NCBI GenBank assembly: GCA_964520615.1
Contig: CAZFNL010000120.1
Coordinates: forward strand, 1-62,105
Direction: 5' to 3'
DNA from: an uncultured Gammaproteobacteria bacterium
GTDB lineage: Bacteria > Patescibacteriota > Microgenomatia > 2-02-FULL-39-11
DNA: 62,105 bases
Part shown: positions 8,389-62,081 of the stretch, one piece after another
How the letters are laid out: every line of letters starts with the position of its first letter
Position numbering within the stretch: position 1 is the first letter of the stretch
The notes under the pieces: generated by a model
What the model saw: only the letters and a program-made list of their open reading frames with translations
Databases searched by the model: none
What the model was told of the DNA's origin: nothing
Position numbers and translations under genes: made by a program

Positions 8389-8471
8389 GTTTTATCCGTA
8401 TATTTTATTTATTATTCCTCTATAATACAAGACCTTATTAATATATCATGATATACTAAAATGCGCTAAAA

Positions 8472-8891: not shown

Positions 8892-8904
8892 AGAAAGACA
8901 GACC

Positions 8905-33491: not shown

Positions 33492-34868
33492 TTATTTTTC
33501 ACCTTTGCGAAGAGATAATCCTAATTCCCTAAGTTGAGTAGGGCTAACTGGAGACGGGGCTTCCATAACAGACGTCCTTCCGCCTGAAGTCATCGGAAAA
33601 GCTACTACTTCACGCAAATACTGCTCGCCGGTCAAAATCATCATAAGACGGTCAACACCAAAAGCGCACCCTCCATGGGGAGGAGTCCCGTAGCTGAAAG
33701 CCGTCAGCATATGTCCAAACTTTTGCTTTATATCTTCTTTTTTATAACCCATGACTTCAAAAACGGATTCTAATATTTGTGGATCGTGAGATCTTATACT
33801 ACCGCCTCCCACTTCAAAACCGTTACAAACAAGGTCGTATTGGCTGGTTAGAATTCCTTCTATATTTTTCTTCTGCAATAAATCATTTACATTCTCTGGC
33901 ATAGGATTTGAAAACGGATTATGAGTAAATGTCCATTTGTCCTCTTTATCCTTTTCAAAAAAAGGAAAATCAATCACCCAAGCAAAAGCTTTGACACCTT
34001 CTTTATTTTCTTCATCTGTTCTCAAATCAAATTTGTCAGACTTAAATTTTTCCATCGCTTCTTTATATGTAAATACCGGAAAAGGTTTCTTCTTTATCTT
34101 CTGTCCCATTTTTTCCATCACTTCTGTAATCATTTTTTCCAGCATATCCATCACGTCTTCTCTTTCCACAAAACTCATCTCAATATCAATCTGCGTATGC
34201 TCAAACCCTCGGTCGGCACGCAAATCCTCATCCCTCATACATCTGGCTATCTGGAAATATCTCTCCATCCCTGCAACCATCAGAAGCTGCTTATATTGTT
34301 GTGGAGATTGGGGTAAGGCATAAAAATTGCCAGGCTGAAGCCTAGATGGAACAAGGAAATCTCTTGATCCTTCAGGTGTTGACTGCGACAAAAGAGGAGT
34401 CTCAATCTCTAAAAAGTTATTTGAGAATAGGAAATTTCTTATGTTTTGGACAAATTGTGAGCGCAGTCTTATATTCCTATTCAATCTTTTCCGTCTCAAA
34501 TCCAAATATCTATACTTCAGTCTTACCTCCTCGTTGATATCATAACCATCACCATCAATAGGAAAAGGTAACTCACGTGATCTGGATAAAACTTCAATAG
34601 ATTTTATCTCTATCTCAATTTTCCCCGTTTCTATATTTGGGTTAACCATCTTTTCAGGACGCGCCTTGATTAATCCTGCAATTCTTACCACACTTTCTGC
34701 TGACACTTTAGCCAGTCCTTTAGCGTCTACTGTCTGTACTGTACCCGTACTATCTCTCAAATCGATAAAAGTGATCTTACCGTGATCTCTCACGGCATTT
34801 ACCCAGCCGTACAAAGTCACTTCTTCACCAACTTTGCCGACCGTATCTTTTATAAGTACCCTCAACAT
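33492..34868 (-). CDS. aspS: Aspartate--tRNA ligase, short form lacking GAD insertion (probably non-discriminating)
   Basis: RDHGK, RLKYRYLDLRR, TPEGSRDF, LPQSPQ, DEDLRADR, GTPPHGG; only 458 aa. Confidence 0.93.
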   Translation of the reverse strand: MLRVLIKDTVGKVGEEVTLYGWVNAVRDHGKITFIDLRDSTGTVQTVDAKGLAKVSAESVVRIAGLIKARPEKMVNPNIETGKIEIEIKSIEVLSRSRELPFPIDGDGYDINEEVRLKYRYLDLRRKRLNRNIRLRSQFVQNIRNFLFSNNFLEIETPLLSQSTPEGSRDFLVPSRLQPGNFYALPQSPQQYKQLLMVAGMERYFQIARCMRDEDLRADRGFEHTQIDIEMSFVEREDVMDMLEKMITEVMEKMGQKIKKKPFPVFTYKEAMEKFKSDKFDLRTDEENKEGVKAFAWVIDFPFFEKDKEDKWTFTHNPFSNPMPENVNDLLQKKNIEGILTSQYDLVCNGFEVGGGSIRSHDPQILESVFEVMGYKKEDIKQKFGHMLTAFSYGTPPHGGCAFGVDRLMMILTGEQYLREVVAFPMTSGGRTSVMEAPSPVSPTQLRELGLSLRKGEK

Positions 34869-34942: not shown

Positions 34943-36139
34943 TTAACGGTTGTATTTTTTGATTGCCAAACCCAATAACTCTATTGCCCTTTCAAGCTTC
35001 TTTTCCTCTAGTACATAGGCAATTCTGATCTCGCTACTACCCAACCCCGGTGTAGCATAGAAACCAGTCGCTGGAGCCACCATAACCGTCTCTTTCTTAT
35101 CAGAAAAATCACTTAGAAGGTATGACGCAAAGTCATCACTGTCTTTTATCGGAAGCTTAGGAATTATATAAAAAGCTCCTTCGGGCGCAACCGCTGTCAC
35201 ACCTGGAATTCTTTTCAGCTCACGCACCACTGTATCCCTTCTGCTCTCATAAAGTTTCCTTATCTTGGCGACATAAGGCTTATGATTTAACAGCATAGGA
35301 ATAAGAGCCATCTGTTCAACTGTAGCTACAGACAATCTTCCCTGTGCAAACCTTAAAATTGACTGCATTATTTCCTTATTCTTACTCACTACACAACCTA
35401 TCCTCACTCCGCAACTATTAAAACGTTTGGAAACGCTATCCGTCACAACCAACTGGTTTGCAAGTTTGGGAAATGAGGCAAACGGCAAGACTTTTTTCCC
35501 GTCAAAGACTAACTCCTGATAGGTTTCGTCAGAGATGATAAAAAGATTGTGTTTCAAGGCCAACTCTACAATCATTTTCACTTCGGCATCCGTATAGAGA
35601 GTACCGGTAGGATTATTTGGATTGCACACTACAATCCCTTTAGTTCTTACGGTAATTGCTTTCTCAATTACTGCTTTAGGCGGAAGATGGAAACCATCCT
35701 CCACTTTTGTCCTGACTGCTTTTAATTTGATATTGCCCATTGCAGCAATTATTGCGTAGCTTGTATAAAAGGGCTCAAAGACTATTAACTCATCTCCGGG
35801 ATCTGCCACTGTAAGAAAAGCAAAAATCAGACCTTCCGAACCTCCGCTTGTTACCAATATATCAGAGGCATCAAATTTTATTCCCTTATCACTATAAAAC
35901 TTTTTCCATGCCTCCATAGTCTCATATACACCAGTTGATGGAGCATATTCTATAGTAGATTCCTTAAAATGCCTTATGGCCGAAAGTATTGGATCAGGGG
36001 TTGGCAAATCAGGTTGGCCTATATTCACATGGTAAACCTTGATTCCCCTTTTTTTGGCTGCATCAGCCAAAGGCACCAGTTTTCTTATGGCAGAAGCGGG
36101 CGTATTTGCTGCCCTTTTTGAGACAGAAACTTTTTTCAT
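34943..36139 (-). CDS. PLP-dependent class I/II aminotransferase (aspartate aminotransferase-like)
   Basis: NIGQPD, CNPNNPTG, SDETY, SVSKRFNSCGVRIG; start MKKV at 36139. Confidence 0.9.
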   Translation of the reverse strand: MKKVSVSKRAANTPASAIRKLVPLADAAKKRGIKVYHVNIGQPDLPTPDPILSAIRHFKESTIEYAPSTGVYETMEAWKKFYSDKGIKFDASDILVTSGGSEGLIFAFLTVADPGDELIVFEPFYTSYAIIAAMGNIKLKAVRTKVEDGFHLPPKAVIEKAITVRTKGIVVCNPNNPTGTLYTDAEVKMIVELALKHNLFIISDETYQELVFDGKKVLPFASFPKLANQLVVTDSVSKRFNSCGVRIGCVVSKNKEIMQSILRFAQGRLSVATVEQMALIPMLLNHKPYVAKIRKLYESRRDTVVRELKRIPGVTAVAPEGAFYIIPKLPIKDSDDFASYLLSDFSDKKETVMVAPATGFYATPGLGSSEIRIAYVLEEKKLERAIELLGLAIKKYNR

Positions 36140-36233
36140 ATTTATTCCTCCTTTTATTTTATAAAAAGCAGGTCCTTGATAATCTCTACCAATTATATAC
36201 GAAACTACTCCTACACCCAAGCCATCATTTATC

Positions 36234-37748
36234 TCAACCCAAACTTTGCCTCAATAAACCACCGTAAGTAATCAGTTTTGAAACATCCTTACCTTCCACA
36301 ACCTTCTTATAAATTTTTTCCACAAGATTGTAATGCTCTAGATGTGTGGAATTACCAGGGCCAAGTACTATTCCTAATTCTTTTTCGATCTCCTTAGTAT
36401 CTTCTTCTACGTCATACCAGAAGGAATTGCGCTTTGCAAGACGGGATAAATTCTGCCTATTCAGGAAATTACCCGCATGAAGCAAATCTTCTTTAATATG
36501 AATATAATACTGTGAAGATTTTTCCCATAAGCCTTTTTTCTTTGCCTCTTTTATACCTCTCCCTGTCCCTATCAATTCAGGAGGCACACCCAATGAATAT
36601 AAGGATGCGGTAAACGGAATAGCCCTCGGCAAACTGACATGACCCACACCTCTTGAGTATCCGAAAAGTCCTATATGAAGCATCCTTTCTCTTCTTTTGG
36701 CTACTTGCCTGCTTAAAGCATTTATCATTCCTGCTGCCTGTTCTATCGAACTCCTATAGGGCTTCTCAAAAAGAGGAATGGTTCTTTGTATGATATCTAC
36801 ACTTGTTTTGTCCAGTCGTTTTGCTTTTCTATGATGGAGCTCATTATTTAGCCTCTCAATGGCAAGTTTCACATCGTGTTTGGGATAGTCGTATCTGAAA
36901 GCGCTTTGTATGGTCAACGTGCGTACTCCGGCATATTCAGACAATGCAATGTCCAACCTGTCAGGACTAAGTCCACCTCTAAAAGGCAACGAACCTGTTC
37001 CCAACATAGGAAAAAACCTTACATCAGTATCTTCCTCCAGCTTCAAGTAGGAGGATAATGCTACTTTTAGGGATAATATCGTCGGGATAAGCCCCGAGTT
37101 TAGTGCCGGGTCGCTCCTTGCACAATAAGGCCTTATATATTTGGGTTTGTACCCAAACATCTTTTTGTGTAATGCAATATATTTTTTCAGAATTCCGGCA
37201 GATCCGGCAATCTTACCCACTTGTTCAAAAAGAGGTATTATTTCCAAATATTGCAATGAGTCCTTCATATTCAAAAGCCTGTGATTTACACTGATCAAGT
37301 CTTTGAAGGCTTCCTGAATCTCTGCGATTTCTTCTGCGGTTTCCGTCAGAGGAAGAATTGTTTCAAAAATTGGTGGTGAAGAAAAACCCAGACTCCTAGC
37401 AAGCTGGCTGCTTGTAATAATTACCATAAAAGCCCTAGCCAACCTGAATTGCTTTTCCACTCTGGGATTTGGAATCCTGAAAGTAAGAAGCTTATCTTTC
37501 CCTATCGGATGTTTTTGGAAGTAATTGAAATAACGGTGCAAAAGTTTATCTATGACCGCCTCATCCACAAACTTCCCTTCCCAATCCCAATTATACTCAT
37601 CTATAGAAAGATCAGAAAAATTCAGGTAACTTTCTTTTATCTCAGCGCTTGTTGAGATGAAAGGTCTTGGATTCCAGTAAGGCCTGGCAGCATTGTCCGG
37701 ATGCTGCGTGGCCATGCAAGCTGAGATTTTACGGTTTATAGTGGTCAT
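36234..37748 (-). CDS. ppcA: Archaeal-type phosphoenolpyruvate carboxylase
   Basis: MATQHPDNA, WDWEGK, ARSDPALNSG, GSLPFRGG, PRAIPFTAS; 504 aa. Confidence 0.92.
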   Translation of the reverse strand: MTTINRKISACMATQHPDNAARPYWNPRPFISTSAEIKESYLNFSDLSIDEYNWDWEGKFVDEAVIDKLLHRYFNYFQKHPIGKDKLLTFRIPNPRVEKQFRLARAFMVIITSSQLARSLGFSSPPIFETILPLTETAEEIAEIQEAFKDLISVNHRLLNMKDSLQYLEIIPLFEQVGKIAGSAGILKKYIALHKKMFGYKPKYIRPYCARSDPALNSGLIPTILSLKVALSSYLKLEEDTDVRFFPMLGTGSLPFRGGLSPDRLDIALSEYAGVRTLTIQSAFRYDYPKHDVKLAIERLNNELHHRKAKRLDKTSVDIIQRTIPLFEKPYRSSIEQAAGMINALSRQVAKRRERMLHIGLFGYSRGVGHVSLPRAIPFTASLYSLGVPPELIGTGRGIKEAKKKGLWEKSSQYYIHIKEDLLHAGNFLNRQNLSRLAKRNSFWYDVEEDTKEIEKELGIVLGPGNSTHLEHYNLVEKIYKKVVEGKDVSKLITYGGLLRQSLG

Positions 37749-47796: not shown

Positions 47797-48467
47797 TTCT
47801 TTATGGAGACAATCTTATTAACCACGTTAAAGGGGCCAAAATCAGTGCGAGTCACGGCAAACCCGTATTTTTCGAAATAACCCTTATTATCTCTCTCAAT
47901 TCTGAGCGTAGTCTGGCTACCAATGAACTTAAACAATAATTTGGCGATAATATTTCTGTCCTGAGGTATACCTCCAGCAATAACAATCACTTTCCCGCCT
48001 TTTTTCAATACTCTTTTCATCTCGATTATAGCTTTATCTAGATTTACAATCTCAGCTAAAACAAACGTCATCACAATACAATCAAATGTTTCATTCTTAA
48101 AAGGCAGGCGGTATACTGACTGTTGTAAAATATCAATATCCAAACCCGCTTTTTTTACCTTTCTCCTTGCCTCATAGGCCATACCTTTTCGAAGTTCCAA
48201 ACCAGTTACTCGATACCCTTTCTGCACCATCTTCAAAAGCAGATGCCCCGGGCCAACACCGATCTCCAGTATTTTTCTACCTACTAAATCATCAAATACC
48301 CTATTCTGCCATTTTTCCCATTGACCAATGGAAAACAGTTGGGTAATTCCGTCATAAATTCGGGGCCACGCATTATACGCGCGATAAAGGTAATCAAAAA
48401 GATGTAAGTGGGTTAGTCGCATAAAGCGGCTTTTATAAATTATAACAAATGTTGACACTAAAATCAA
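47793..48467 (-). CDS. Class I SAM-dependent methyltransferase
   Basis: ILEIGVGPG, LPFKNETFD, RVLKKGG; start may be 48422. Confidence 0.85.
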   Translation of the reverse strand: MILVSTFVIIYKSRFMRLTHLHLFDYLYRAYNAWPRIYDGITQLFSIGQWEKWQNRVFDDLVGRKILEIGVGPGHLLLKMVQKGYRVTGLELRKGMAYEARRKVKKAGLDIDILQQSVYRLPFKNETFDCIVMTFVLAEIVNLDKAIIEMKRVLKKGGKVIVIAGGIPQDRNIIAKLLFKFIGSQTTLRIERDNKGYFEKYGFAVTRTDFGPFNVVNKIVSIKK

Positions 48468-48491
48468 AATGTCGTATATTAAACTATTCTT

Positions 48492-48545
48492 ATGCGAAAT
48501 CTAACTCTTTCAAGCCTTAATCTCCTCCTTGGAGAAGATTTCTAA
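48492..48545 (+). CDS. leuL: leu attenuator leader peptide MRNLTLSSLNLLLGEDF
   Basis: 6 Leu codons including CTC-CTC-CTT; upstream of terminator and leuA. Confidence 0.8.
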   Translation: MRNLTLSSLNLLLGEDF

Positions 48546-48593
48546 TGGTTTGAGAGGATACAGAGAATAAATCAATAAGCAAATAAGAAAATG

Positions 48594-48624
48594 AATCTCT
48601 CTTAAGCCAAGAGAGATTTTTTTT
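48594..48624 (+). terminator. leu attenuator terminator
   Basis: AATCTCTCTT-aagcc-AAGAGAGATT followed by T-tract. Confidence 0.85.
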
Positions 48625-48694
48625 ATGATAAATATTCAATGTAAAGGATTTGAAAAATTCGGTATCAAGGCTGCAAAAATAAAACAATGATTTT

Positions 48695-50194
48695 ATGAAA
48701 CAAAAAATTTCCATCTTTGACACCACACTGCGCGATGGCGAACAGTCGCCGGGGGCTAAACTAAACACTTCCCAAAAAGTGGAGTTGGCAAGACAACTAG
48801 AAAAGTTGGGAGTGAACATCATCGAAGCCGGATTTCCCATCTCTTCACCTGGGGATTTTGAATCAGTCGTGGCCGTCTCAAAAACAGTCAGAAACTGTAC
48901 CGTCTGCGGCCTGACCCGTGCCATAAAAGAAGATATAGAGTGCGCCGCCAAAGCGCTGAAATACGCACAAAGCCCCCGGATACATACCGGAATCGGCGCC
49001 TCAGATGTCCATATAAAATACAAATTCAAATCAAACCGCAAAGATATACTGGAAAGGGCGGTCGAGGCTGTCCTGTATGCCAAAAAATTTGTTTCTGACG
49101 TGGAATTTTACGCTGAAGATGCCGGACGCGCAGATAATCAATTTCTTTCGGAAATGATTATGAAAGTAATAACTGCAGGAGCAACAGTTGTCAATATTCC
49201 CGACACCACCGGTTATTGTTTTCCTGAAGAATTCGGCCCAAAAATAAAATATCTCACCAAAAATGTACCAAATATTGATAAAGCCATCATTTCCGTGCAT
49301 TGTCATAATGATCTGGGTGTAGCTACAGCCAATACATTGTCTGGAGTTTTTAATGGAGCACGGCAGGTAGAAGTAACAATGAACGGAATTGGTGAAAGAG
49401 CAGGAAATACCTCACTTGAAGAAGTAGTCATGGCGCTTTATACACGGCGCGATTATCTGTCTTATTCAACAAGTATTAAGACTGGCGAAATTTACAAAAC
49501 CAGCCAGATGGTCTCGCAGATTATGGGCATTCCTGTCCAACCGAATAAAGCCATAATCGGAGCCAATGCTTTTTCCCATTCATCAGGAATACATCAAGAT
49601 GGAATCCTGAAAAGAAGGGAAAATTACGAAATAATTGATCCAAAGGCTGTAGGATTGACCTCTTCAAAAATTATTCTCACAGCCCGATCAGGCCGAGCAG
49701 CACTCCGTCACAAGCTGGAAAAAATAGGTTTTAATCTGACACATGATAAATTGAACTCTGTCTATCAGAAATTCCTGAAACTGGCGGATATCAAAAAAGA
49801 AATTTATGACGAGGATCTATATTATCTGATGGACCAAAAAGATGAAACAAACCACAAAAAAATAAAACTGGTACTCATCCAAACAATTTCGGGAAATAAA
49901 AATATTCCCACTTCAACCGTAAGACTGTCAGTCAATGGAAAAAATAAGGAAGCTACGGGTACTGGTGACGGCCCAATAGATGCCAGTTTTAATGCGATAG
50001 ACACTTGTTTGGGCCAAAATCATAAACTGACACAATTTCTTATCCAGGCCGCCACAATAGGATCAAATGCCATGGCTAAAGTATACGTGGGAGTACAAGA
50101 CGGCAAAAGGGGATCTTTCGGTTCTGGAACTCACACAGACACCATAGTCGCTGCAGCAATGGCTTACATAGATGCTGTTAATAAGATTCACTAA
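48695..50194 (+). CDS. leuA: 2-isopropylmalate synthase
   Basis: [32 protein letters not shown]-terminal regulatory domain. Confidence 0.96.
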
Positions 50195-50195
50195 T

Positions 50196-52097
50196 ATGAT
50201 CACCGATATTTCCGGAAAAGTTACCTCCACCTTTCCCGACGACATAAATACTGACGACATCATACCGGCCTGGACATTGCAGGAATCAACCGACCGTTCA
50301 TTTTTCGGCAGGTATGCTTTTGCAAATTATGATAAGGAATTTATCTCCCGAAACCGGAAAGATGAAAATAATATTCTTGTCGCCGGTGAAAATTTTGGCT
50401 GCGGGTCATCCCGAGAACAGGCGGTCTACGCACTACAGGAAAACTGTGTAAAAGCAGTCATTGCCAAATCATATCCTGATATATTTTTCCGTAATTGCCT
50501 TAATAACGGACTTATATTAATTACAATGACTGATACTACCCAATTTCACAAATCGGACCGACTTGTGATTAATCTTGAGAAAAAGGAAATAAAAATAAAC
50601 GGCAGAAAAACGTTTAGTTTCAAAATGGATGAGACTGTCGCCAAAACATTCATTCTTGGAGGAAAAATCGGAAAAATCAGAAGTCACCTATCCTTATTAT
50701 TGGAAAAACCCGCCAAAAGCCAAAAGGATTATGCCGGAACAAAAATAAAGTCTACTAAACCAAAGACTATCGCAGAAAAAATAATAACAGATCATCTGGG
50801 ATACGAGACTTTTGCAGGTGACAAGCTAGAAAAATTACCCATAGATGTTCTTTTCTTCAATGAAGTCATTGCACCTCCGGCTCTGAAAGACAGTCTTTCT
50901 AATTTTTCCGACATATATGCAAAAAACAAAAAGAAATTTTACGTCTTTGATAAAAAAAGAGTATTTCTTATCCCAGACCATACTGTCCCCTCTTCGTCGG
51001 TTGCGGTTTCCGAAGGAATAGATTTTATGGAGAAGTTTGCCAAAGATCAGGGAATCAAATGCTATAAGGAAGGAGATGGGATAGAACATGTCGTCCTTAT
51101 AGAAGATGGCCAAATCGTTCCCGGAGAAATTATTCTGGGAACGGACTCGCACACTGATACCAATGGGGCGTTAAACACATTGGCTTTTGGCGTCGGCACC
51201 ACTGATGCAAGTTTTGCTCTGCCTACCGGATATCTTTACGATATTGAAATACCAAAAACAATCAGGGTAAATCTTCATGGTAAACTCAGCAATGGTACAT
51301 TCTCCAAAGATATTATTCTTTATTTAATTGGTAAATTGGGAGTAGATGGAGCATCAAGAAGAATAGTCGAGTTTGGTGGCCCGGCCCTCTCCTCTCTCTC
51401 TATGGATGCCAGAACTACTATGGCTAACATGGCTGTGGAGATGGGAGCAAGGACGGCAATTTTTGAGTTTGACAAAATATTGAAAAAATATATCGATGAA
51501 AGAGCCAAGTATCCCTATAAAGCCTATACACCTGATAAAAATTGCAATTATGAAAAAATTATCAATATTGATTTATCCTCTCTTGAACCGATGGTGGCAT
51601 TCCCCCATAAACCTGGTAACGTCACGCCTGTAAGTAAACTAGACCAGTATATGCGTAAATCCCAAAAATCAAAAAATGTGGATTTTGCCAGAGTCAATTC
51701 TCTTAACATAACAGATGCTTTTTTGGGAGCCTGCACAAATGGCCGGTATGAAGACTTTGTGGCGGCGGCAAAGATAATAAAAGGCAGGAAAGTAAACCCG
51801 CAGGTAAACTTTGTAGTTATACCAGCATCAAGAAAAGTCTATAACAAACTACTAAAAGACGGCATACTGACGCTTTTTGCGGATGCCGGGGCCAATATCG
51901 AATCCTCAAACTGCGGACCGTGCTTTGGCAAACATATGGGAGTTGTCGGAACCGGCGCTCAAATGATATCTTCGTCAAACAGAAATTATATCGGCAGAAT
52001 GGGTTCCCGCGAAGCCAAGATTTTTCTGGCCTCACCGGTCACAGTCACCGCTGCTGCAATCGCAGGTAGGATAGTTGATCCCAGAATTTACCTATGA
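50196..52097 (+). CDS. leuDC: Fused 3-isopropylmalate dehydratase, small subunit (N-term) plus large subunit (C-term)
   Basis: DDINTDDIIP, NFGCGSSRE; then DHT, DSHT, GACTNG, CGPC, SSNRN in one frame. Confidence 0.9.
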   Translation: MITDISGKVTSTFPDDINTDDIIPAWTLQESTDRSFFGRYAFANYDKEFISRNRKDENNILVAGENFGCGSSREQAVYALQENCVKAVIAKSYPDIFFRNCLNNGLILITMTDTTQFHKSDRLVINLEKKEIKINGRKTFSFKMDETVAKTFILGGKIGKIRSHLSLLLEKPAKSQKDYAGTKIKSTKPKTIAEKIITDHLGYETFAGDKLEKLPIDVLFFNEVIAPPALKDSLSNFSDIYAKNKKKFYVFDKKRVFLIPDHTVPSSSVAVSEGIDFMEKFAKDQGIKCYKEGDGIEHVVLIEDGQIVPGEIILGTDSHTDTNGALNTLAFGVGTTDASFALPTGYLYDIEIPKTIRVNLHGKLSNGTFSKDIILYLIGKLGVDGASRRIVEFGGPALSSLSMDARTTMANMAVEMGARTAIFEFDKILKKYIDERAKYPYKAYTPDKNCNYEKIINIDLSSLEPMVAFPHKPGNVTPVSKLDQYMRKSQKSKNVDFARVNSLNITDAFLGACTNGRYEDFVAAAKIIKGRKVNPQVNFVVIPASRKVYNKLLKDGILTLFADAGANIESSNCGPCFGKHMGVVGTGAQMISSSNRNYIGRMGSREAKIFLASPVTVTAAAIAGRIVDPRIYL

Positions 52098-53186: not shown

Positions 53187-53495
53187 TTACGATATTTTGA
53201 CTCCTACGAAATCAATCTTTGGAAAATAAATCCTGACTTCCTTCCAAAATTTATCAGCAAGCCCTGCCGAAAACACTCCGTATTGTCCCCGTTCGCTTTG
53301 ACTGCACAACTTTCTTTCCCATTCCCTAATCTCATCTACTACTTCCTTACCTAGCTTGTTGAATTCATTTTCATACTTGACGGGATCAAGCATATAACTG
53401 TCATGTATGCGCTTAAACTCGGTAAAAAGATATTCATTCTTATCCATCATTTCTCGAAAATATTTTTGGTATTTGGTCATATTTTTGTCAGCCAA
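53187..53495 (-). CDS. Conserved hypothetical protein
   Basis: 102-aa ORF; EIREWERKLC..FWKEVR. Confidence 0.65.
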   Translation of the reverse strand: MADKNMTKYQKYFREMMDKNEYLFTEFKRIHDSYMLDPVKYENEFNKLGKEVVDEIREWERKLCSQSERGQYGVFSAGLADKFWKEVRIYFPKIDFVGVKIS

Positions 53496-54400
53496 GCGGC
53501 ATATTTCTTATCCTTGCCACGGACAATGTCAAAAAAAAGTTTTTGAATTTTCCCCGTAATTGGCCCCATTCCCCCTTCACCTATTGTCCGTCCGTCAACC
53601 TCTGTAATCCAAGCGACTTGAGCTCCGGTCCCGGAAAGGAAAGCTTCATCAGCTATATAAACTTCTGTCCTGTCTATTTCTCTTTCCTCAATAGAAATCT
53701 TTAATTCACCCGCCAATTCTAGAATAGTTCTCCTTGTTATACCTTCAAGGACATCATTATATTTTGGGCTTGTTATAAGTATCCCGTCCCTTATCATAAA
53801 GAAATTTGCCCCACTTCCCTCAGCCAAATGACCGTCGGAAGAAAGCATAAGAGCGTCATCACAACCCAGTTTAGCTGCATCCCCTTTAGCAAGGGAAGAA
53901 TTGATATATCCTCCCGTCACTTTAGCCCGGGAAGGAATCATATTATCATTTATCCTGACCCAATTGGAAATAGCCAGCTTCAAACCCTTACTCACGGGCA
54001 AATATTCTCCCAGAGGAATCATATACATGGCAAAATCAAATTCCAGTTTACTTAAATCAGGTGAAATTTCAAAATTCTTGGCATAAGCAAATGGACGGAA
54101 GTAACAATCGGTTCTAGGATTGTTTTTCCTGGCCAGTTCCACTGTGATATCAATAAGATGTTTCTGGCTATATCGAATAGATTTATTTAAAATTTTCAGG
54201 GAACTTAAAAATCTTTTATAGTGGTCACTCACTCTAAAAATATTTACAGATCTTTTACCCTCGGCAACGTACCCTCTTATACCGCCAAAAATACCATTGC
54301 CGTATTGGAGAGCATTGGTCATGATGTTGACACGTGCAAGCTCAGTAGGAACTATTTTCCCCTCAAAAAAAGCAAAAGGGAAAGATTTTGATTCAGCCAT
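53477..54400 (-). CDS. ilvE: Branched-chain amino acid aminotransferase
   Basis: LQYGNGIFGG, AKVTGGY, EGSGAN, LEGITR, LSGTGA. Confidence 0.93.
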   Translation of the reverse strand: MAESKSFPFAFFEGKIVPTELARVNIMTNALQYGNGIFGGIRGYVAEGKRSVNIFRVSDHYKRFLSSLKILNKSIRYSQKHLIDITVELARKNNPRTDCYFRPFAYAKNFEISPDLSKLEFDFAMYMIPLGEYLPVSKGLKLAISNWVRINDNMIPSRAKVTGGYINSSLAKGDAAKLGCDDALMLSSDGHLAEGSGANFFMIRDGILITSPKYNDVLEGITRRTILELAGELKISIEEREIDRTEVYIADEAFLSGTGAQVAWITEVDGRTIGEGGMGPITGKIQKLFFDIVRGKDKKYAAWLTKI

Positions 54401-54406
54401 ATTATT

Positions 54407-54835
54407 TTAGTCGCAGCAGCTGCAATTACCCTCGCCGCAACATTCTCCTTTCTTATCTTTTGTAAAAGCTATACATTCTATCTCAACTAAAGCATCCTTT
54501 GGCAATTTAGCTACAGCAATAGTTGCCCGCGCCGGATACGGCTTGGAAAAAAAGGTGGCATAAACTTCATTCATAGAGGCAAAATCATCCATGCTTTTCA
54601 GATAAACAGTGGTCTTTAACACGTTTTCCATACCAGAACCGGCTGCAGAAAGAATATTCTTTATATTCTCTAAAGCAAGTTTCGTCTGTTCTTTTATCCC
54701 TTTATCGCTTAATATGTTTGTTTTTGGATCCGCTCCTATGTTACCAGCGCAAAAAACCAGATTACCCAGCTTGACAGCTTGTGAATATGGTCCTATGGCC
54801 GATGGAGCCTTTTTGGTATCAACTTCAATTTTCAT
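54407..54835 (-). CDS. ridA: RidA/YjgF enamine-imine deaminase
   Basis: IGPYSQA, YPARAT, LVEIE; Cys-rich tail CCGEGNCSCCD. Confidence 0.92.
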   Translation of the reverse strand: MKIEVDTKKAPSAIGPYSQAVKLGNLVFCAGNIGADPKTNILSDKGIKEQTKLALENIKNILSAAGSGMENVLKTTVYLKSMDDFASMNEVYATFFSKPYPARATIAVAKLPKDALVEIECIAFTKDKKGECCGEGNCSCCD

Positions 54836-54871
54836 AATAGTACCTCCTTACAATAAAGTTTATATTCACTA

Positions 54872-56749
54872 TCAGGATTTCTTCGCACTATTTTTAGATT
54901 GTTCTTTCAACTGATAGGCTAGCTCATTATAACCTTTTTCAAATGCTTCTATCGACGCCACAATAATATCAGGGGATGTGCCTTTCTCAATTACTTGAGT
55001 TCCATTCTCATGTTGTAAGACCATACTTGCTTCTACAGTAGCATCGCTTCCTGTTGTAGGTATCTCTACGTTAAAATCGGTAAGGCGGAATTCCCCTCCA
55101 TTTTTGCGTTTGATAATTGAGGATATTGCGTTTATTGCTGCGTCTACCGGTCCCACTCCTTCGCTTTCATTTTCAAATTCGCGACCGTTAAGGCTAATTT
55201 TGACATATGCCCTGGGTTTATTTCTTTTGGAAGTCTCGATTCTAAAATCCAAAACGTCCAGTGTCTTTTTTCTTCTCTCATCCTGCATGATAGTCTCTAT
55301 TATTGACTGAAGATCAGCTTTCACGATATTTTTCCCTTTTACGATAATAAACTTACCAATCACTTTTTTGATTATTTTTAGCGATTCTATATCCAATTCC
55401 AGTCGGAATTCACGCTTGATGACTTTTTTCAACTCGATCTCTTCGGGTACTTTGGTAAATAAGACTTTTTCTTTATCGCCTACTCCTCCTGCTCTAAGAG
55501 ACAGAATGCCGCTTTTTATCACTTTTAAGGCTTCAGAAAGTATCGGTTCGATTGTTGGTGGATCAGCCAAAACTTTTAGCGTTGTGGCAGGATCTTTCAA
55601 ACCTGCCCCAGTTGCCACACAAACCACTACATCATTTTCTTTTATAATCTTCTGTTTCGCCAGTCTTTGAAGCGCTACAATCGAAGTAGCTGATGAAGGC
55701 TCTATATATAGCGCTTCCATCTTAGCAAGAGTCTGCTGAGCGGAAAGCGTCTCATCATCTGATACTGCTATGGCTGTCCCGTGTGACTCTTTCAGAGCTT
55801 TGAGCACTTTGGGGTAATCAATTGGCATCCCGCAGGCAATAGCAGAACATATAGTTTGGGGTTTATCCAATGGCTTTATCTCAGAGTGAGTTATAAAAGC
55901 TGTTACTATTGTTGACGCTCCCTCAGCCTGAACAGCCACCATTTTCGGGAGCTGGGAAATAAGGCCAAACTCAAAATATTCCTTAAATCCTTTCCAAATA
56001 TAAGATAAGTTTGTTCCCATTCCCACCGGCACTATTACCCAGTCAATTTTACCAAACCACATCTGCTCGCAAACTTCAAATGCCAGTGATTTCTGGCCTT
56101 CACCTCTAAAAGCATAATCTCCGGCCAGGTAATAACCGAACTGCGCCGCAACTTTTACTGTAAGGTTAAAAGCATCAGAGTAAGTACCGCGCACCTGGAT
56201 TACCCGCGCTCCATAAGAAATGGCCTGAGCCAACTTGCCGCGCGGCGTATTTTCAGGCACAAATACATAACACTCCAAACCTGCCTGAGCAGAATATGCA
56301 GCAACGGATGCTGCCATATTTCCGGTTGAAGCAACACAGACGCTCTTAAAACCTAATTCTTTTGCCTTATTTATTTCTACAAAACTTCCCCTATCCTTAA
56401 AAGCCCCTGTGGGATTGAGACCTTCATTTTTCAGGTAAATTCTGGAAAGTCCTAACTTACTGCCAAGTTTTGGCAAATTATGGAGCTGTGTTCCCCCCTC
56501 ACCAAGCGAGCTTAAATTATTCCTATCAATTAAAGGGTAAAAATCAAGATATTTTATTGTTTTGGGAGGGGTATTTTGCATCACATAGAAATTCATTCCA
56601 TCTTTTAGCTTTGAATAATCATAGATTACGTCAAGAGGGCCGCCACAACTTCTGCAGACGGTAGTATTTTCTTTTTCGTTAACCTTTTTATGACAAAGGA
56701 AACATTCTATATGATAGAAATAGTCATCTGATATCATTTTTTCTTCCAA
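54872..56749 (-). CDS. thrC: Threonine synthase-like PLP enzyme fused to a LeuA-type C-terminal regulatory domain
   Basis: NPTGAFKDRG, ASTGN, EGQKS, EPSSA, TGAGLK; C-term GVGPVDAA...GSDATVEA...DIIVAS. Confidence 0.82.
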   Translation of the reverse strand: MEEKMISDDYFYHIECFLCHKKVNEKENTTVCRSCGGPLDVIYDYSKLKDGMNFYVMQNTPPKTIKYLDFYPLIDRNNLSSLGEGGTQLHNLPKLGSKLGLSRIYLKNEGLNPTGAFKDRGSFVEINKAKELGFKSVCVASTGNMAASVAAYSAQAGLECYVFVPENTPRGKLAQAISYGARVIQVRGTYSDAFNLTVKVAAQFGYYLAGDYAFRGEGQKSLAFEVCEQMWFGKIDWVIVPVGMGTNLSYIWKGFKEYFEFGLISQLPKMVAVQAEGASTIVTAFITHSEIKPLDKPQTICSAIACGMPIDYPKVLKALKESHGTAIAVSDDETLSAQQTLAKMEALYIEPSSATSIVALQRLAKQKIIKENDVVVCVATGAGLKDPATTLKVLADPPTIEPILSEALKVIKSGILSLRAGGVGDKEKVLFTKVPEEIELKKVIKREFRLELDIESLKIIKKVIGKFIIVKGKNIVKADLQSIIETIMQDERRKKTLDVLDFRIETSKRNKPRAYVKISLNGREFENESEGVGPVDAAINAISSIIKRKNGGEFRLTDFNVEIPTTGSDATVEASMVLQHENGTQVIEKGTSPDIIVASIEAFEKGYNELAYQLKEQSKNSAKKS

Positions 56750-57789
56750 TTTTCAGGACGCAGAGACCTTACAGTAGCGCCTGCCCTCCACATCTCCATA
56801 TTTCTCATTTCTGACAATTCTTTTTCAAGTTTTTTCCTATAATCCTTTGCTGAATTTGCCTTCAATACTCGTTGTGCTTCTTTTCCGATCTTGACAGAAG
56901 AATAGAGCCTCCTGAAAACCGGAGCTACAGCGTCTCTAAACTCTCCTTTCCAATCAAGAGCACCTCTTTGAGCGGTAGTTGAACAGTTGGCATACATCCA
57001 GTCCATTCCGTTTTCCGCAACCATCCTGATAAGACTTTGGGTCAACTCTTCCACTGTTTCGTTAAAAGCTTCAGATGGCGTGTGTCCTCGTCTTCTGAAT
57101 TCATTAAACTGCGCCTCCATTATCCCTTCAAGCGCTCCCATAAGTACTCCCCGCTCCCCTGTCAAGTCGCTGTAGACTTCTTTCTCAAACGTGGTTTCAA
57201 AAAGAAAACCTGATCCCACACCGATACCCATTGCCATAACTCTCTCCTTTGCCCGGCCTGTAGCATCTTGGAAGACGGCAAAACTACTATTTATCCCGCT
57301 TCCGGCAAGGAAATTCTGCCTTACAGATCTTCCAGCACCTTTAGGAGCTATAAGGATAACGTCTGTATCTTTTGGAGGAATAATCTTGGTATATTTCCTG
57401 TAAGTGATACCAAATCCGTGGGAAAAATAGAGTGCTTTACCGGCAGTCAGATATTTTTTCACTTTTGGCCACAGAGCCACCTGCCCGGCATCAGAAAGCA
57501 GATAGGCCAATATCGTACCTTTTTCTGCCGCTTCCTCAATAGAAAAGAGGGTCTTTCCTTTTTTCCACCCATCCTTTACAGCCTTATCCCAGGAAGATGA
57601 AGGTGACCGTTGACCGATAATCACATTCACACCGTTATCTTGCAGATTCATCGCTTGTGCCGGACCCTGAACTCCATAACCAAGTACCGCAACTATTTCA
57701 TTTTTTAATACCTGGCGGGCGCGATCTAGCGGAAACTCCTGCCTCGTCACTACATTTTCGGTAACATCACCAAATTTCATCTTTGCCAT
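56734..57789 (-). CDS. ilvC: Ketol-acid reductoisomerase
   Basis: GYGVQG, SDLTGERGVLMG, AQRGALDW; start MAKM at 57789. Confidence 0.94.
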   Translation of the reverse strand: MAKMKFGDVTENVVTRQEFPLDRARQVLKNEIVAVLGYGVQGPAQAMNLQDNGVNVIIGQRSPSSSWDKAVKDGWKKGKTLFSIEEAAEKGTILAYLLSDAGQVALWPKVKKYLTAGKALYFSHGFGITYRKYTKIIPPKDTDVILIAPKGAGRSVRQNFLAGSGINSSFAVFQDATGRAKERVMAMGIGVGSGFLFETTFEKEVYSDLTGERGVLMGALEGIMEAQFNEFRRRGHTPSEAFNETVEELTQSLIRMVAENGMDWMYANCSTTAQRGALDWKGEFRDAVAPVFRRLYSSVKIGKEAQRVLKANSAKDYRKKLEKELSEMRNMEMWRAGATVRSLRPENWKKK

Positions 57790-57799
57790 AGAAAACTCC

Positions 57800-58288
57800 T
57801 TATTTATATAATGCGGTTCTTCCGGTCCGCACAAACTCAATAATGCCGAATTTCTTCATATTTTCATAAAAGGCATCAATTTTCTCCTCTTCACCGGTAA
57901 TCTCTAGCACCATATATTCTGGATGAATATTTACTACATGAGCTCTAAAATGATCGGCAATGTTGGATACTTCAATTCTAGCTCCTGGCTTTCTTATGGA
58001 AACCTTTAGAAGCGCAAGTTCTCTGGCAACAATTTCTCCTGGTGCTGGATCGCTTACTTTTAAAACTTCAATAATCCGGTAAAGTTGTTTGCTCATTTTC
58101 TCAACAATGTCTTTTTCTCCCCGCACCAATATCGTAAATCGCGAAATCAGGGGATTTTCTGTATGTGATACCGTCAGACTCTCGATATTAAACCGCCTTT
58201 TGCGGATAAGGCCTGCAATCCGGAAAAGGACTCCCGGTCGGTTTTGTACAGACACGATTAAAGTTGACAAATTATTCTTAGTCTCCAT
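57800..58288 (-). CDS. ilvN: Acetolactate synthase small subunit
   Basis: NRPGVL, FNIESL, VRTGRTAL. Confidence 0.93.
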   Translation of the reverse strand: METKNNLSTLIVSVQNRPGVLFRIAGLIRKRRFNIESLTVSHTENPLISRFTILVRGEKDIVEKMSKQLYRIIEVLKVSDPAPGEIVARELALLKVSIRKPGARIEVSNIADHFRAHVVNIHPEYMVLEITGEEEKIDAFYENMKKFGIIEFVRTGRTALYK

Positions 58289-58398: not shown

Positions 58399-60105
58399 CT
58401 ATTCTAATATTATCTCGTCCACGGCCGCACCAGCCGGCATCATTGGGAATACATTGGCCTCTGTCTCCACAACAAATTCAATAACAAACGGTCCTTTATG
58501 CGCACGTGCTTTTTTTATTGCAGGTAATATATCCTTTCTGTTTTCTACTTTCACAGCCGGTATCCGGAACCCCTCGCAGAGTTTGATAAAATCGGGATTC
58601 CTCAAAAATACCTCCGAATATTTATGATTGAAAAAAAGATGCTGCCATTGCCGTACCATACCCAAAAAATTATTATTCAGAATTGCTACTTTAATATCTA
58701 TATTTTCCTCTTCAATGGTTGCTAGCTGATTCATGGTCATCTGGAAACTTCCATCCCCAACAATTGCCCAGACTTCGGCCCCAGATCTGCCCAATTTTGC
58801 GCCCATAGCAGCCGGAATGGAAAAACCCATAGTACCTAAACCTCCGGAAGTAAGAAATCTGTCAAGTTTATGAAAATGGTAATATCTGGCGGCTATCATC
58901 TGATGTTGACCCACATCGGCTACAACAACTGCCTCACCCCTCGTCTCCTGATTCAGCTCATTAACCACCTCACCCATTTTGATTTTTCCTTTTTTGGGAT
59001 GGACTTCAACTTGAATAACCTTTTTATCTTCAATCCGGTCATATTTTTTAAATTCCGCAAACCATTCTTTATGCTTTACACGATTGACTAGAGGAATAAG
59101 TTTACCAAGAACATTTTTCACGTCGCCGACAATAGGCACATCTGCTTTTACATTTTTCCCCAGCTCGGCAGGATCAATATCCACATGAACTACTTTCGCG
59201 CCTTTGGCATAAGAAGATAAATTTCCAGTCACTCTGTCATCAAAACGCATACCCAAAGCAATCAGGCAATCAGTTTTATTAGTACACATATTCGGACTAA
59301 GATTCCCGTGCATCCCCAACATTCCTACATAACTTGGATGGTCAACAGTGATACTACTGATTCCATGAAGGGTGGTAGCTACAGGAATATCAGCCTTTCG
59401 TGCAAGCTCATCCAGCTCTTTTTCAGCATGGGAAATGAGGATTCCGTGACCAGCCAAAATATAAGGCTTTTTGCTTTCATTTATAATTTCTGCCGCTTTT
59501 TTAATTTGTATAATATTTCCCTCAACAGTCGGCTTGTATCCGGGAAGATCTAGACTTTTGGGGTAAACAAATTTGCACTCTCTATATTGCGCATCTTTGG
59601 CAATATCAATCATGACTGGACCGGGTCTCCCTGAATTGGCAATATAAAAAGCTTCTCTTATTACATCCGCCACTTCCTCCGGTTTTAGGATAAGATAATT
59701 ATGTTTGGTAATCATTCCCGTCACTCCTACCACATCAGTCTCCTGAAAAGCATCGTTGCCAATGAGATTTGAAACCACCTGGCCGCTAATGCAAACAATC
59801 GGGACTGAATCCATCATGGCATCGGCAATTCCGGTTATCAGATTTGTGGCACCAGGTCCTGAGGTAACGAGGCAAACTCCCGGTTTACCGGTAACTCTAG
59901 CATAGCCTTCAGCAGCGTGAGCCGCACCCTGTTCGTGACGTACCATCACATGATGAAGCTCCGGATATTCCAAAAGCGCATCATAGGTTGGCATGATAGC
60001 ACCCCCTATATAACCAAAAATTGTATCGACTCCCTCACGAAGCAACATTTCACAAAGAATTTCTCCACCGGTTGCGTTCTGTCCTTCTTTTAATCTAGTT
60101 TTCAT
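58399..60105 (-). CDS. ilvB: Acetolactate synthase large subunit
   Basis: RHEQGA, TSGPGATN, FQETD, GDGSFQM..NN, PM. Confidence 0.96.
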   Translation of the reverse strand: MKTRLKEGQNATGGEILCEMLLREGVDTIFGYIGGAIMPTYDALLEYPELHHVMVRHEQGAAHAAEGYARVTGKPGVCLVTSGPGATNLITGIADAMMDSVPIVCISGQVVSNLIGNDAFQETDVVGVTGMITKHNYLILKPEEVADVIREAFYIANSGRPGPVMIDIAKDAQYRECKFVYPKSLDLPGYKPTVEGNIIQIKKAAEIINESKKPYILAGHGILISHAEKELDELARKADIPVATTLHGISSITVDHPSYVGMLGMHGNLSPNMCTNKTDCLIALGMRFDDRVTGNLSSYAKGAKVVHVDIDPAELGKNVKADVPIVGDVKNVLGKLIPLVNRVKHKEWFAEFKKYDRIEDKKVIQVEVHPKKGKIKMGEVVNELNQETRGEAVVVADVGQHQMIAARYYHFHKLDRFLTSGGLGTMGFSIPAAMGAKLGRSGAEVWAIVGDGSFQMTMNQLATIEEENIDIKVAILNNNFLGMVRQWQHLFFNHKYSEVFLRNPDFIKLCEGFRIPAVKVENRKDILPAIKKARAHKGPFVIEFVVETEANVFPMMPAGAAVDEIILE

Positions 60106-60174: not shown

Positions 60175-61893
60175 CTAACTTGTAACTGCGCCGTATGAAG
60201 CGCTTGATACCAGTTTTGCGTATTTTGCCAGAACTCCCCGTTTATATTTATCTGCCGGAGCTTTCCAATTCTTCCTTCTTTTCTCAATCTCATCTTTACT
60301 TATATCCAAATCTACGATCCTTTTTTTCAGGTTGATAGTTATCATATCTCCTTCTTTCACTAAAGCAATTGTCCCTCCGACTTTTGCCTCGGGTGATACA
60401 TGTCCTATCATAATTCCGTGAGTACCGCCTGAGAAACGTCCGTCTGTAATAAGGGCAACATCTTTCCCCAATCCCCGACCCATTAGAGCTGAAGAAGGAG
60501 AAAGCATCTCCCGCATGCCTGGTCCGCCTTTTGGACCCTCATATCTTATCACTATTACGTCTCCTTTTTTTATCTTCCCGGCGAGAATTGCATCAAGAGC
60601 ATCCTCTTCCCTCTCAAAAACTCTGGCAGGACCCCGATGCATCTCCATCTCCTTGCCGGAAAGTTTCATCACTGCACCCTCTTTTGCCATATTGCCATAC
60701 ATGACAACAATATGATGGTCAGACGGCGCCAAAGGTTTATCAAAACTATATACAATCTTCTGGTTTGAGGGTCGCCTCCGGGCTGACCTGATATTTTCCT
60801 CTACCGTTTTTCCTGTTACTGTCATACATTCACCATGAATAAGCCCTGCTTCATAAAGCATTTTCAAAACCATTTGTACTCCGCCTATGGTATGCAAATT
60901 CTCCATAACATAATCACCAAAAGGTTTGAAATTACCCAAAAGTGGTACTTTCTTTCCGATTCTATCAAAATCAGAAAGAGTCAAATCAATATCAGCCTCA
61001 TGGGCCAAAGCTAAAAGATGAATATAAGCATTGGTAGATCCTCCAAGAGCCAACACAACCATAATCGCATTTTCAAAAGCCTTTTTTGTCATGATATCCC
61101 TTGTTCTTATGCCTTTTTTCATCAGGTTAAAAAGAGCTTTGACTGAATTTTTGCAGTCTGCTTTTTTCTCCGCTGATACCCGGTTTTTGCGGTCTACGGC
61201 CAAATTGGTAGCAGAACCTGGCAAACTCATTCCCAGTGCCTCAATGGCACTTGACATGGTATTGGCGGTAAACATCCCCCCGCAGGCACCGGCTCCCGGA
61301 CATGAATGGCACTCAATCTGCCGGAATTCGGCATCGTTCATCTTACCCGCAGCGTGAGCTCCGATTGCTTCAAAAGTGCTGACTATTGTCAGGTCTTTTC
61401 CTTTATACCTTCCCGGCAAAATACTTCCTCCATAGAGAGTCAACCCTATGCTGTTGTTTCTGGCCAGCGGCATAAGCGCTCCCGGTATAGTCTTGTCGCA
61501 GCCTGAAAGGGTAATAATACCGTCAGCCATATATGATTCATGCATTGTCTCGATGCTGTCGGCGATAAGCTCGCGGGAAACAAGGGAATACTTCATGCCT
61601 TCCATGCCCATTGATTCTCCATCACTTACTACAGGAGTTCCGAATATGAACGCTTTCCCTCCGGCTTTTTCTATCTCATCTTTTATAATCTCTCCCAACT
61701 CCTGGACTTGAGCATTGCAGGGAGTAGCATTGGTGTATGGACAAGCTACAGTCACGATGGGTTTTTCAAAATCTCGGTCATTGAAATTGACTGCCCGCAG
61801 CATGGCACGTGCCGCGGCTCTTTTTGCCCAATCCTTGCCGCCGGGGGTTCCGGTAAGAAACCTGCTTCGATTTTTTAATAAATTTTTACTCAT
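60175..61893 (-). CDS. ilvD: Dihydroxy-acid dehydratase
   Basis: [41 protein letters not shown]. Confidence 0.96.
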
Positions 61894-61898
61894 AAACG

Positions 61899-61926
61899 AA
61901 AAAGCCTCTCTTTCTTGAGAGGCTTT
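61899..61926 (-). terminator. ilv attenuator terminator
   Basis: AAAGCCTCTC-6-GAGAGGCTTT; U-tract on minus strand. Confidence 0.85.
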
Positions 61927-61952
61927 CTTAATTCTTAATTCTTAATTCTTAA
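61925..61952. repeat. (TTCTTAA)4 perfect tandem repeat inside the ilv leader
   Basis: Seen directly. Confidence 0.9.
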
Positions 61953-62044
61953 CTCTTTGATCCGGCCTCCCAAGAAAATCCCTGTCCGATGACAAGGACA
62001 ATAATTGAGAGGGCAATAAGTGATAAAGTCGGGAAACTTAACAC
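61949..62044 (-). CDS. ilvL: ilv attenuator leader peptide (GTG) MLSFPTLSLIALSIIVLVIGQGFSWEAGSKS
   Basis: Run LIALSIIVLVI of Leu/Ile/Val codons between promoter and terminator. Confidence 0.75.
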   Translation of the reverse strand: MLSFPTLSLIALSIIVLVIGQGFSWEAGSKS

Positions 62045-62052
62045 GATAACCT

Positions 62053-62081
62053 AATATATACCAACATATATAGCTTGTCAA
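62053..62081 (-). promoter_or_regulatory. Sigma70 promoter of ilv operon
   Basis: TTGACA-17-TATATT on minus strand. Confidence 0.75.

Follow-up and report, generated by a model that had tools for sequence, protein, structure and literature searches.

Which enzyme supplies 2-oxobutanoate to an isoleucine-valine operon that encodes the remaining steps? This question is raised by a 62,105-nucleotide (nt) stretch of DNA, analyzed here as a whole and hereafter called the window, whose minus strand carries an ilv operon that covers, within the window, each step of isoleucine and valine synthesis but the supply of 2-oxobutanoate. Between ilvC and ridA, this operon holds a gene, here termed gene X, that joins a catalytic domain resembling threonine synthase (ThrC), with its pyridoxal 5'-phosphate (PLP) lysine, to a regulatory domain of the type found in LeuA. 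We consider the chances somewhat better than even that gene X is an isoleucine-gated enzyme forming 2-oxobutanoate in the stead of threonine dehydratase (IlvA), with threonine as the likeliest substrate. The case for this reading rests on three features combined, namely, an altered active-site signature, the fused sensor, and the ilv/RidA context.

Domain architecture of gene X

The gene and the parts of its product are as follows:

54872..56749, minus strand: gene X, ThrC-like PLP enzyme with a LeuA-type regulatory domain; a 625-amino-acid (aa) open reading frame (ORF) from TTG, with Pfam and NCBIfam matches
56621..56716, minus strand: N-terminal CxxC...CxxC zinc ribbon, residues 12-43; read from the sequence, with a weak Prok-RING_1 match
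55607..56509, minus strand: fold-type II PLP catalytic domain, residues 81-381; Pfam PALP (PF00291), E value 2.4e-76
55283..55540, minus strand: helical linker, residues 404-489; AlphaFold2 models and Foldseek alignment to Mycobacterium tuberculosis LeuA
54920..55327, minus strand: LeuA_dimer-type allosteric domain, residues 475-610, with two beta-beta-beta-alpha units; Pfam PF08502

An earlier note on this DNA had assigned the fusion to positions 54407-56749. The fusion gene does lie inside that span, but so does ridA, and the span thus comprises two minus-strand genes of 142 aa (ridA) and 625 aa (gene X). Gene X probably starts at the ATG at position 56737, which would give a protein of 621 aa, because this codon forms an ATGA overlap with the ilvC stop and because 621 aa is also the length of P0001, a homolog of gene X with 97% identity.

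The same note had described a ThrC-like part preceded by a ribbon of cysteine pairs and a LeuA-like C terminus, and Pfam bore out both halves. PALP covers residues 81-381, and the four cysteines are present in the arrangement C16-x2-C19 ... C32-x2-C35, modeled with a predicted local distance difference test (pLDDT) score of ~90; C32 and C35 are nearly invariant. The PLP lysine is K118, within FKDRG, and is invariant in fused relatives. At the other end, LeuA_dimer matches with an E value of 8.3e-29 (100.6 bits versus a cut-off of 24.9), and the strings that had been read as LeuA-like were located at residues 531-538 (GVGPVDAA), 567-574 (GSDATVEA), and 594-599 (DIIVAS). The asserted likeness to the C terminus of the leuA product encoded in the window also holds, at 28% identity to LeuA residues 368-498 (E value 7e-14). 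The Pfam scan of gene X found neither PF00585 (Thr_dehydrat_C, ACT-like) nor an HMGL-like (DRE-TIM) domain; the N-terminal partner of the regulatory domain is PALP.

The best NCBIfam models for gene X are threonine synthases. It scores 291.8 bits against PRK08197, the closest equivalog model, whose cut-off is 303, and it stays under the cut-offs of PRK05638, PRK06450, PRK06381, and PRK08329. The IlvA models (TIGR01124/TIGR01127 and related) have cut-offs near 380-440 bits, of which gene X reaches ~100 (at best 104.4 bits versus a cut-off of 378.75), and IlvA sequences in the PDB match only at ~1e-11. Cysteate synthase (TIGR03844) was ruled out as an identity for gene X (67.9 bits versus a cut-off of 324.9).

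A PDB sequence search likewise gave ThrCs as the best solved relatives (2ZSJ, 6CGQ, 2D1F, and 1UIM). The AlphaFold2 model of the whole protein (mean pLDDT 83.5, predicted template modeling score 0.68) was matched best in Foldseek by the threonine synthases 2ZSJ, 6NMX, 2D1F, and 1V7C, with a template modeling (TM) score of ~0.85, and threonine deaminases and serine racemases came clearly below them. With these class I ThrCs (EC 4.2.3.1) from Aquifex aeolicus (2ZSJ), Bacillus subtilis (6CGQ/6NMX), M. tuberculosis (2D1F), and Thermus thermophilus (1UIM/1V7C), gene X shares 37-43% identity over ~350 residues, the fold, and the FKDRG lysine motif; its zinc ribbon is as in archaeal-type canonical ThrCs. 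Unlike them, it ends in a LeuA-type regulatory module of ~220 aa.

The C-terminal 226 residues, modeled apart (pLDDT 86.8), fold into linker helices and, after these, two beta-beta-beta-alpha units. Foldseek matched this model to 3F6H/3F6G, the regulatory domain of Leptospira citramalate synthase (CimA) with bound isoleucine, with a TM score of 0.84-0.87, a root-mean-square deviation of 2.2 A, and 29-30% identity. The second target was M. tuberculosis LeuA (3FIG, 1SR9), for which the alignment extends over ~175 columns and includes the linker, compared with a regulatory domain of ~120 residues. E values for the CimA and LeuA targets are ~1e-10, the next match is unrelated (1.5e-4), and 3F6G was also matched by the PDB sequence search of gene X at 4e-7. 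The two beta-beta-beta-alpha units, the motifs GxGPVDA and SPD..AS, and, as in LeuA, a helical linker ahead of them are thus common to gene X, to L. interrogans CimA (LiCMS, 3F6G/3F6H, isoleucine bound), and to M. tuberculosis LeuA (1SR9/3FIG, leucine bound). In gene X, this regulatory domain sits on a PLP enzyme and not on a DRE-TIM aldolase-type domain. Similarity does not favor either isoleucine or leucine as effector; the CimA domain and the LeuA of the window are about equally close (28-30%).

In the succession of a fold-type II PLP domain and a C-terminal amino-acid-binding regulatory domain, gene X also resembles IlvA (EC 4.3.1.19; Escherichia coli 1TDJ), with which it further shares the operon slot after ilvC and before ilvE, the partnership with RidA, and the proposed product, 2-oxobutanoate. 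Unlike IlvA, to which it is only distantly homologous, it has a catalytic domain that descends from ThrC in our tree (see below) and a regulatory domain belonging to PF08502 and not to the ACT-like Thr_dehydrat_C family.

Active-site signature and gene context

A homolog search with gene X gave more than 1,200 matches; 117 of the best 120 contain both PF00291 and PF08502. Where they are named, these homologs are called "threonine synthase"; they come, among others, from Patescibacteria (Gottesman-, Woese-, Peregrini-, and Gracilibacteria) and NC10. P0070, P0078, and P0104 were considered as natural variants lacking the regulatory domain and were rejected, since a stop inside the linker or an abrupt divergence makes them look like fragments. 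A scan of one genome per species yielded at least 585 related loci, the best 80 of which were compared (L001-L080). In 51 of these (L001-L051), the gene has the fused form, and the hosts belong to the candidate phyla radiation (CPR), to DPANN (Woesearchaeota, Micrarchaeia, Nanohalarchaeota), and to Methylomirabilota/NC10, together with single metagenome-assembled genomes (MAGs) labeled Baltobacteraceae, Nitrospinota, and Altimarinota. The other 29 (L052-L080), the closest proteins with a canonical signature, are unfused and of ~416 aa, mostly from Bathyarchaeia, plus Methanocella and others.

The signature of ThrC is replaced in the fused proteins: polar and cationic side chains are lost, and two carboxylates are gained. 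The canonical group (the 29 unfused proteins and three solved ThrCs) has the motifs TGSFKDRGM, STGNT[SA]A, NS[VI]NPxRxEGQK, and PVGNAGN; gene X and every one of the 51 fused relatives have TG[AVG]FKDRG[ST], STGNMAAS, AGDYxFRxEGQK, and PxG[CMVF]GTN in their place. Where ThrC has GNTSA, NS[VI]NP, GNAGN, an Arg, and a Ser-Trp pair, gene X thus has M-A, A-G-D-Y, M-G-T, Ala, and Asp-Gly. A column-by-column comparison of the catalytic domain revealed 85 positions that are conserved and identical in both groups and 16 that are conserved in each group and yet different, and the latter cluster in the signature motifs. From canonical to fused, the changes include T to M145, S to A146, N to A209, S to G210, V or I to D211, N to Y212, F to Y190, A to G245, G to T246, and S to D311; in addition, the canonical N at 244 is C, M, or V, the canonical R at 305 is A, and the canonical W at 312 is G, A, or D in the fused group. 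K118 and R215 are kept in all fused proteins.

The T. thermophilus ThrC complexes described by Omi in 2003 and Murakawa in 2011 reportedly show Thr88, Asn154, Ser155, Arg160, and Asn188 holding the substrate or product phosphate. By register, we take these ligands to be M145, A209, G210, R215, and M244 of gene X.

A search of 1.84 billion cluster representatives with only the catalytic part as query was followed by a tabulation of signatures and a tree. All proteins combining GNM[AG]AS with GD/GN-Y fall into a single clade (46 tips, support 0.96), which is sister to a canonical ThrC clade that includes the solved enzymes (0.99, 13 tips). The fused proteins are a subclade with a support of 0.70, and the eight short sequences nested inside it may represent either fragments or cases of secondary loss. 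Deeper in the clade lie 15 unfused proteins of 339-405 aa with the same altered signature, one of them from the cultured Methanocella conradii. The ThrC-like superfamily around gene X is highly diverse and holds many uncharacterized signature types.

Unfused altered-signature paralogs of ThrC (GNM[AG]AS, GDY) of 370-390 aa were located at 8001-9164 in M. conradii HZ254 (L081) and at 8001-9125 in a Nanoarchaeota MAG (L083). No cysteate synthase match at an E value of 1e-40 or lower was found among the unfused altered-signature relatives. In a Methanocella MAG (L071), a thrC-hom-lysC operon encodes a canonical ThrC as well.

In the window, the operon runs ilvD-ilvB-ilvN-ilvC-X-ridA-ilvE on the minus strand, with short gaps and no convincing terminator between ilvD and ilvE. 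The earlier note had placed gene X where ilvA would be expected, next to ridA, and this is indeed the slot it fills, after ilvC and before ilvE with ridA adjoining. The features of the operon besides gene X are as follows:

60175..61893, minus strand: ilvD, dihydroxy-acid dehydratase; TIGR00110, 718.5 bits versus a cut-off of 618
58399..60105, minus strand: ilvB, acetolactate synthase large subunit; sequence and homologs in related operons
57800..58288, minus strand: ilvN, acetolactate synthase small subunit; position and homologs in related operons
56734..57840, minus strand: ilvC, ketol-acid reductoisomerase; TIGR00465, 299.6 bits versus a cut-off of 226
54407..54835, minus strand: ridA, imine/enamine deaminase of the Rid family, ending in a Cys-rich tail; TIGR00004, 165.7 bits versus a cut-off of 106
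53477..54400, minus strand: ilvE, branched-chain amino acid transaminase; TIGR01122, 306 bits versus a cut-off of 245.6
61894..62081, minus strand: promoter-like site, candidate leader peptide, and hairpin with T-run before ilvD; read from the sequence

The ridA gene starts 36 nt past gene X and has its own AAGGAGG upstream, its product keeps the PAR(A) Arg motif, and 6 nt separate the ridA stop from the start of ilvE. Neither ilvA nor hom nor thrB, all of which the earlier note had reported missing, was found in Pfam and NCBIfam scans of 47 of 55 listed ORFs (>=150 aa). In addition, hmmsearch and phmmer over all six frames of the window gave no second ThrC- or PALP-like ORF and no hom, lysC, or asd. 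CimA was considered as another source of 2-oxobutanoate in the window and ruled out: the sole LeuA-like gene there scores 683 bits against TIGR00973 (LeuA; cut-off 598.7) and stays below both CimA models (199.8 versus 450).

Further analysis of gene order across the 80 loci, based on our own ORF calls with the window proteins as queries, revealed a contrast between the two forms. An ilv, leu, or ridA gene directly adjoins the fusion in 26 of the 51 fused loci but ThrC in none of the 29 canonical ones, and RidA adjoins 13 fused genes and no canonical gene. Conversely, hom or lysC lies within 10 kb in only 3 of the fused loci but in 26 of the canonical loci, where the gene is followed by homoserine dehydrogenase and aspartokinase (thrC-hom-lysC). 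Unlike ThrC, gene X lies in an ilv operon with RidA and not with hom, thrB, or lysC. The adjacency to ilv, leu, or ridA recurs in distant CPR and DPANN lineages, and five Gottesmanbacteria loci repeat the gene order of the window exactly or nearly. No IlvA or second ThrC was found within 10 kb of any of the 51 fused genes; a single extra PALP ORF is TrpB-like.

In two Micrarchaeia MAGs (L035, 9983-13270; L037, 1398-4684), the fusion is directly followed by a 487-aa LeuA-family gene. This gene could be either CimA or LeuA, since it passes only mixed isopropylmalate/citramalate/homocitrate subfamily models.

Proposed reaction and alternatives

We infer a substrate, a product, an effector, and roles for single residues of gene X as follows. 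L-Threonine would form an external aldimine on K118, after which the alpha-proton and then the beta-hydroxyl would be removed in a reversal of the last step of ThrC, with D211 and D311, the newly fixed carboxylates in an otherwise apolar pocket, as candidate acid/base groups. In ThrC, the retained product phosphate directs water addition over enamine release; in gene X, the aminocrotonate enamine would be released without re-hydration because that product-phosphate site is presumably gone, a loss that would turn a side reaction of ThrC into the main one. RidA handles the released enamine or imine, and the adjoining RidA would speed its hydrolysis to 2-oxobutanoate and ammonia, leaving IlvBN, IlvC, IlvD, and IlvE of the same operon to complete isoleucine. 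It is the position in the ilv operon beside RidA that leads us to propose 2-oxobutanoate, and not threonine, as the product. The C-terminal LeuA/CimA-type domain would probably dimerize and shut the enzyme down upon binding an end product of the branched-chain pathways, isoleucine being the likeliest, and would thus play the part of the ACT-like domain of IlvA.

A side reaction of this kind is on record: ThrCs of B. subtilis, T. thermophilus, and Microcystis have weak threonine deaminase activity, and B. subtilis ilvA mutants are rescued via ThrC (PMC12172450; bioRxiv 10.64898/2026.09.15.751699). What we propose for gene X thus resembles two cases in which a ThrC-fold enzyme forms 2-oxobutanoate from threonine, one being the moonlighting ThrC of Microcystis aeruginosa and the other the suppression, through ThrC, of ilvA mutants of B. 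subtilis (same sources). These ThrCs are still true threonine synthases, with deamination on the side, and lack a LeuA-type domain, whereas gene X has a replaced ThrC signature and a dedicated sensor. Although each component (ThrC fold, LeuA-type regulatory domain, RidA) is known by itself, the literature that we found does not describe them joined as a probable IlvA substitute and includes no paper joining threonine synthase with LeuA_dimer; no such enzyme is listed in GapMind 2026, a systematic survey of novel amino acid biosynthesis enzymes.

Several observations weigh against this proposal. Gene X passes the lenient cut-off of the thrC model TIGR00260 (241.5 versus 167.1 bits). The neighbors of fused genes in NC10 and other large genomes (rhomboid, zincin, YceG, and tetratricopeptide repeat proteins) are uninformative, and in L038, homoserine dehydrogenase directly follows the fusion, which fits a homoserine-derived substrate too. 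R215, presumably one of the phosphate ligands, is invariant in the fused clade. Finally, unfused altered-signature members lie away from ilv, next to CbiMQO and PfkB in one case and to GatDE in the other. Since these deeper members are not near ilv genes, the signature alone is no proof of the proposed function; their contexts (Methanocella, Nanoarchaeota), considered as a possible functional confirmation, proved unrelated and neither support nor refute it.

Some of the same observations bear on the possibility that gene X converts O-phosphohomoserine, or else O-acylhomoserine, homoserine, or a similar compound, straight to 2-oxobutanoate by beta,gamma-elimination without the re-addition of water, a scheme that would retain the isoleucine feedback and the need for RidA. 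We consider this unlikely. ThrC chemistry passes via aminocrotonate, which decays to 2-oxobutanoate, as is established (literature cited in PMC12172450); the invariance of R215 and the hom gene of L038 would fit, and the RidA and ilv context suits such a substrate as well as it does threonine. In addition, lysC and asd lie ~6 kb from the fusion in L033 and hom lies 4 kb upstream in L035; no thrB or thrC was seen near these genes, and there was no GHMP kinase (thrB) among the scanned neighbors of the fused loci with hom, lysC, or asd. What speaks against a phosphate ester is the pocket, in which four polar positions that are invariant in canonical ThrCs, presumably phosphate ligands, are apolar in 51 of 51 fused proteins and two Asp residues are newly fixed in the same motifs; together, these changes should disfavor an anionic substrate. 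The wider claim that isoleucine synthesis in CPR, DPANN, and NC10 branches off the aspartate pathway one step before threonine, via activated homoserine and under isoleucine gating, appears to us slightly more doubtful still. If it were true, it would represent an undescribed natural entry to the isoleucine pathway, with a sensor borrowed from LeuA/CimA.

The branched-chain-gated true ThrC that the earlier note had offered as its other option, which would couple threonine supply to isoleucine demand, seems quite unlikely to us. In its favor, the best sequence and fold matches of gene X are ThrCs, the TIGR00260 score exceeds the cut-off, the PLP lysine and the 85 conserved positions are common to both groups, and hom adjoins the fusion in L038. 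However, a true ThrC is disfavored because the signature shared by the solved and the hom-lysC-linked ThrCs is replaced in every fused protein; in addition, the PRK08197 score falls short of the cut-off, the fusion never occurs in the thrC-hom-lysC arrangement in which its canonical relatives stand, and a synthase that does not release its intermediate would give no reason for the adjacency to RidA. The note's alternative to a gated ThrC, the supply of 2-ketobutyrate in place of IlvA, fits both the ilv/RidA context and the lost ThrC signature. We likewise think it quite improbable that gene X carries out some other PLP reaction under branched-chain control (e.g., serine or allo-threonine dehydration, racemization, or beta- or gamma-replacement), its placement among ilv genes being regulatory or accidental. 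The diversity of the ThrC-like superfamily, the unrelated contexts of unfused proteins with the same signature, and the NC10 members without an ilv context would all be in keeping with such a reaction; on the other hand, the ilv/leu/ridA adjacency spans distant CPR and DPANN lineages, the regulatory domain is generally known only from enzymes of the leucine and isoleucine pathways, and 2-oxobutanoate supply is the sole step absent from the operon.

Other features of the window and implications

Both branched-chain operons of the window look attenuated. Upstream of ilvD, a near-consensus promoter (TTGACA-17-TATATT, 11/12) and a hairpin with a T-run at 61901-61926 accompany a short ORF, VLSFPTLSLIALSIIVLVIGQ..., in which Ile, Val, and Leu codons abound, a region of classical appearance that is likely the attenuator of the operon. 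The convergent plus-strand unit consists of leuA, a fused leuD-leuC, and leuB, and the region upstream of leuA (48440-48694, plus strand) holds TTGACA-17-TATATT, a Leu-rich short ORF, MRNLTLSSLNLLLGEDF, and a hairpin with a T-run. Here, leuD and leuC form one 641-aa ORF in swapped order (50172-52097, plus strand), with the swivel (small-subunit) domain at residues ~20-160 and the aconitase (large-subunit) domain at ~200-638; in the Gottesmanbacteria loci L004 and L005, leuC and leuD are separate and in the usual order. Rfam and tRNA scans of the window gave no matches.

At the other end of the ilv operon, the Cys-rich RidA tail, ...KDKKGECCGEGNCSCCD, is encoded at 54407-54460 (minus strand) and may possibly bind metal. 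CC/GC-rich RidA tails were found beside the fusion in four of the five Gottesmanbacteria loci (L001, L002, L004, and L005), whereas RidA of other lineages lacks them. The operon ends with a 102-aa ORF (53187-53495, minus strand) without a Pfam match that overlaps the end of ilvE by 19 nt; no counterpart was detected in related loci at an E value below 1e-8.

Elsewhere in the window, a RuBisCO large-subunit homolog (5696-7084, minus strand) adjoins a phosphoribulokinase/uridine kinase family protein (4463-5566, plus strand), in a genome that has the look of CPR. An archaeal-type phosphoenolpyruvate carboxylase, PEPcase_2 (36234-37748, minus strand), precedes a class I/II aminotransferase (34943-36220) and, after it, a class II Asp/Asn/Lys-type tRNA synthetase (33492-34868), and these three may represent a module supplying aspartate from oxaloacetate. 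A protein of 403 aa whose N-terminal domain resembles the TnsA endonuclease (3141-4352, minus strand) is possibly the remnant of a mobile element.

If gene X indeed replaces IlvA as we propose, the first committed step of isoleucine synthesis in many uncultured bacteria and archaea would be catalyzed by an enzyme that arose separately from IlvA. More than 1,000 database entries named "threonine synthase" would then carry the wrong function, and metabolic reconstructions of CPR, DPANN, and NC10 genomes in which ilvA is missing, or in which this gene is counted as thrC, would need correction. The promiscuous threonine deaminase reaction of ThrC would have become a main function by the loss of a substrate/product site, and an allosteric module would have moved between unrelated catalytic scaffolds within one pathway.

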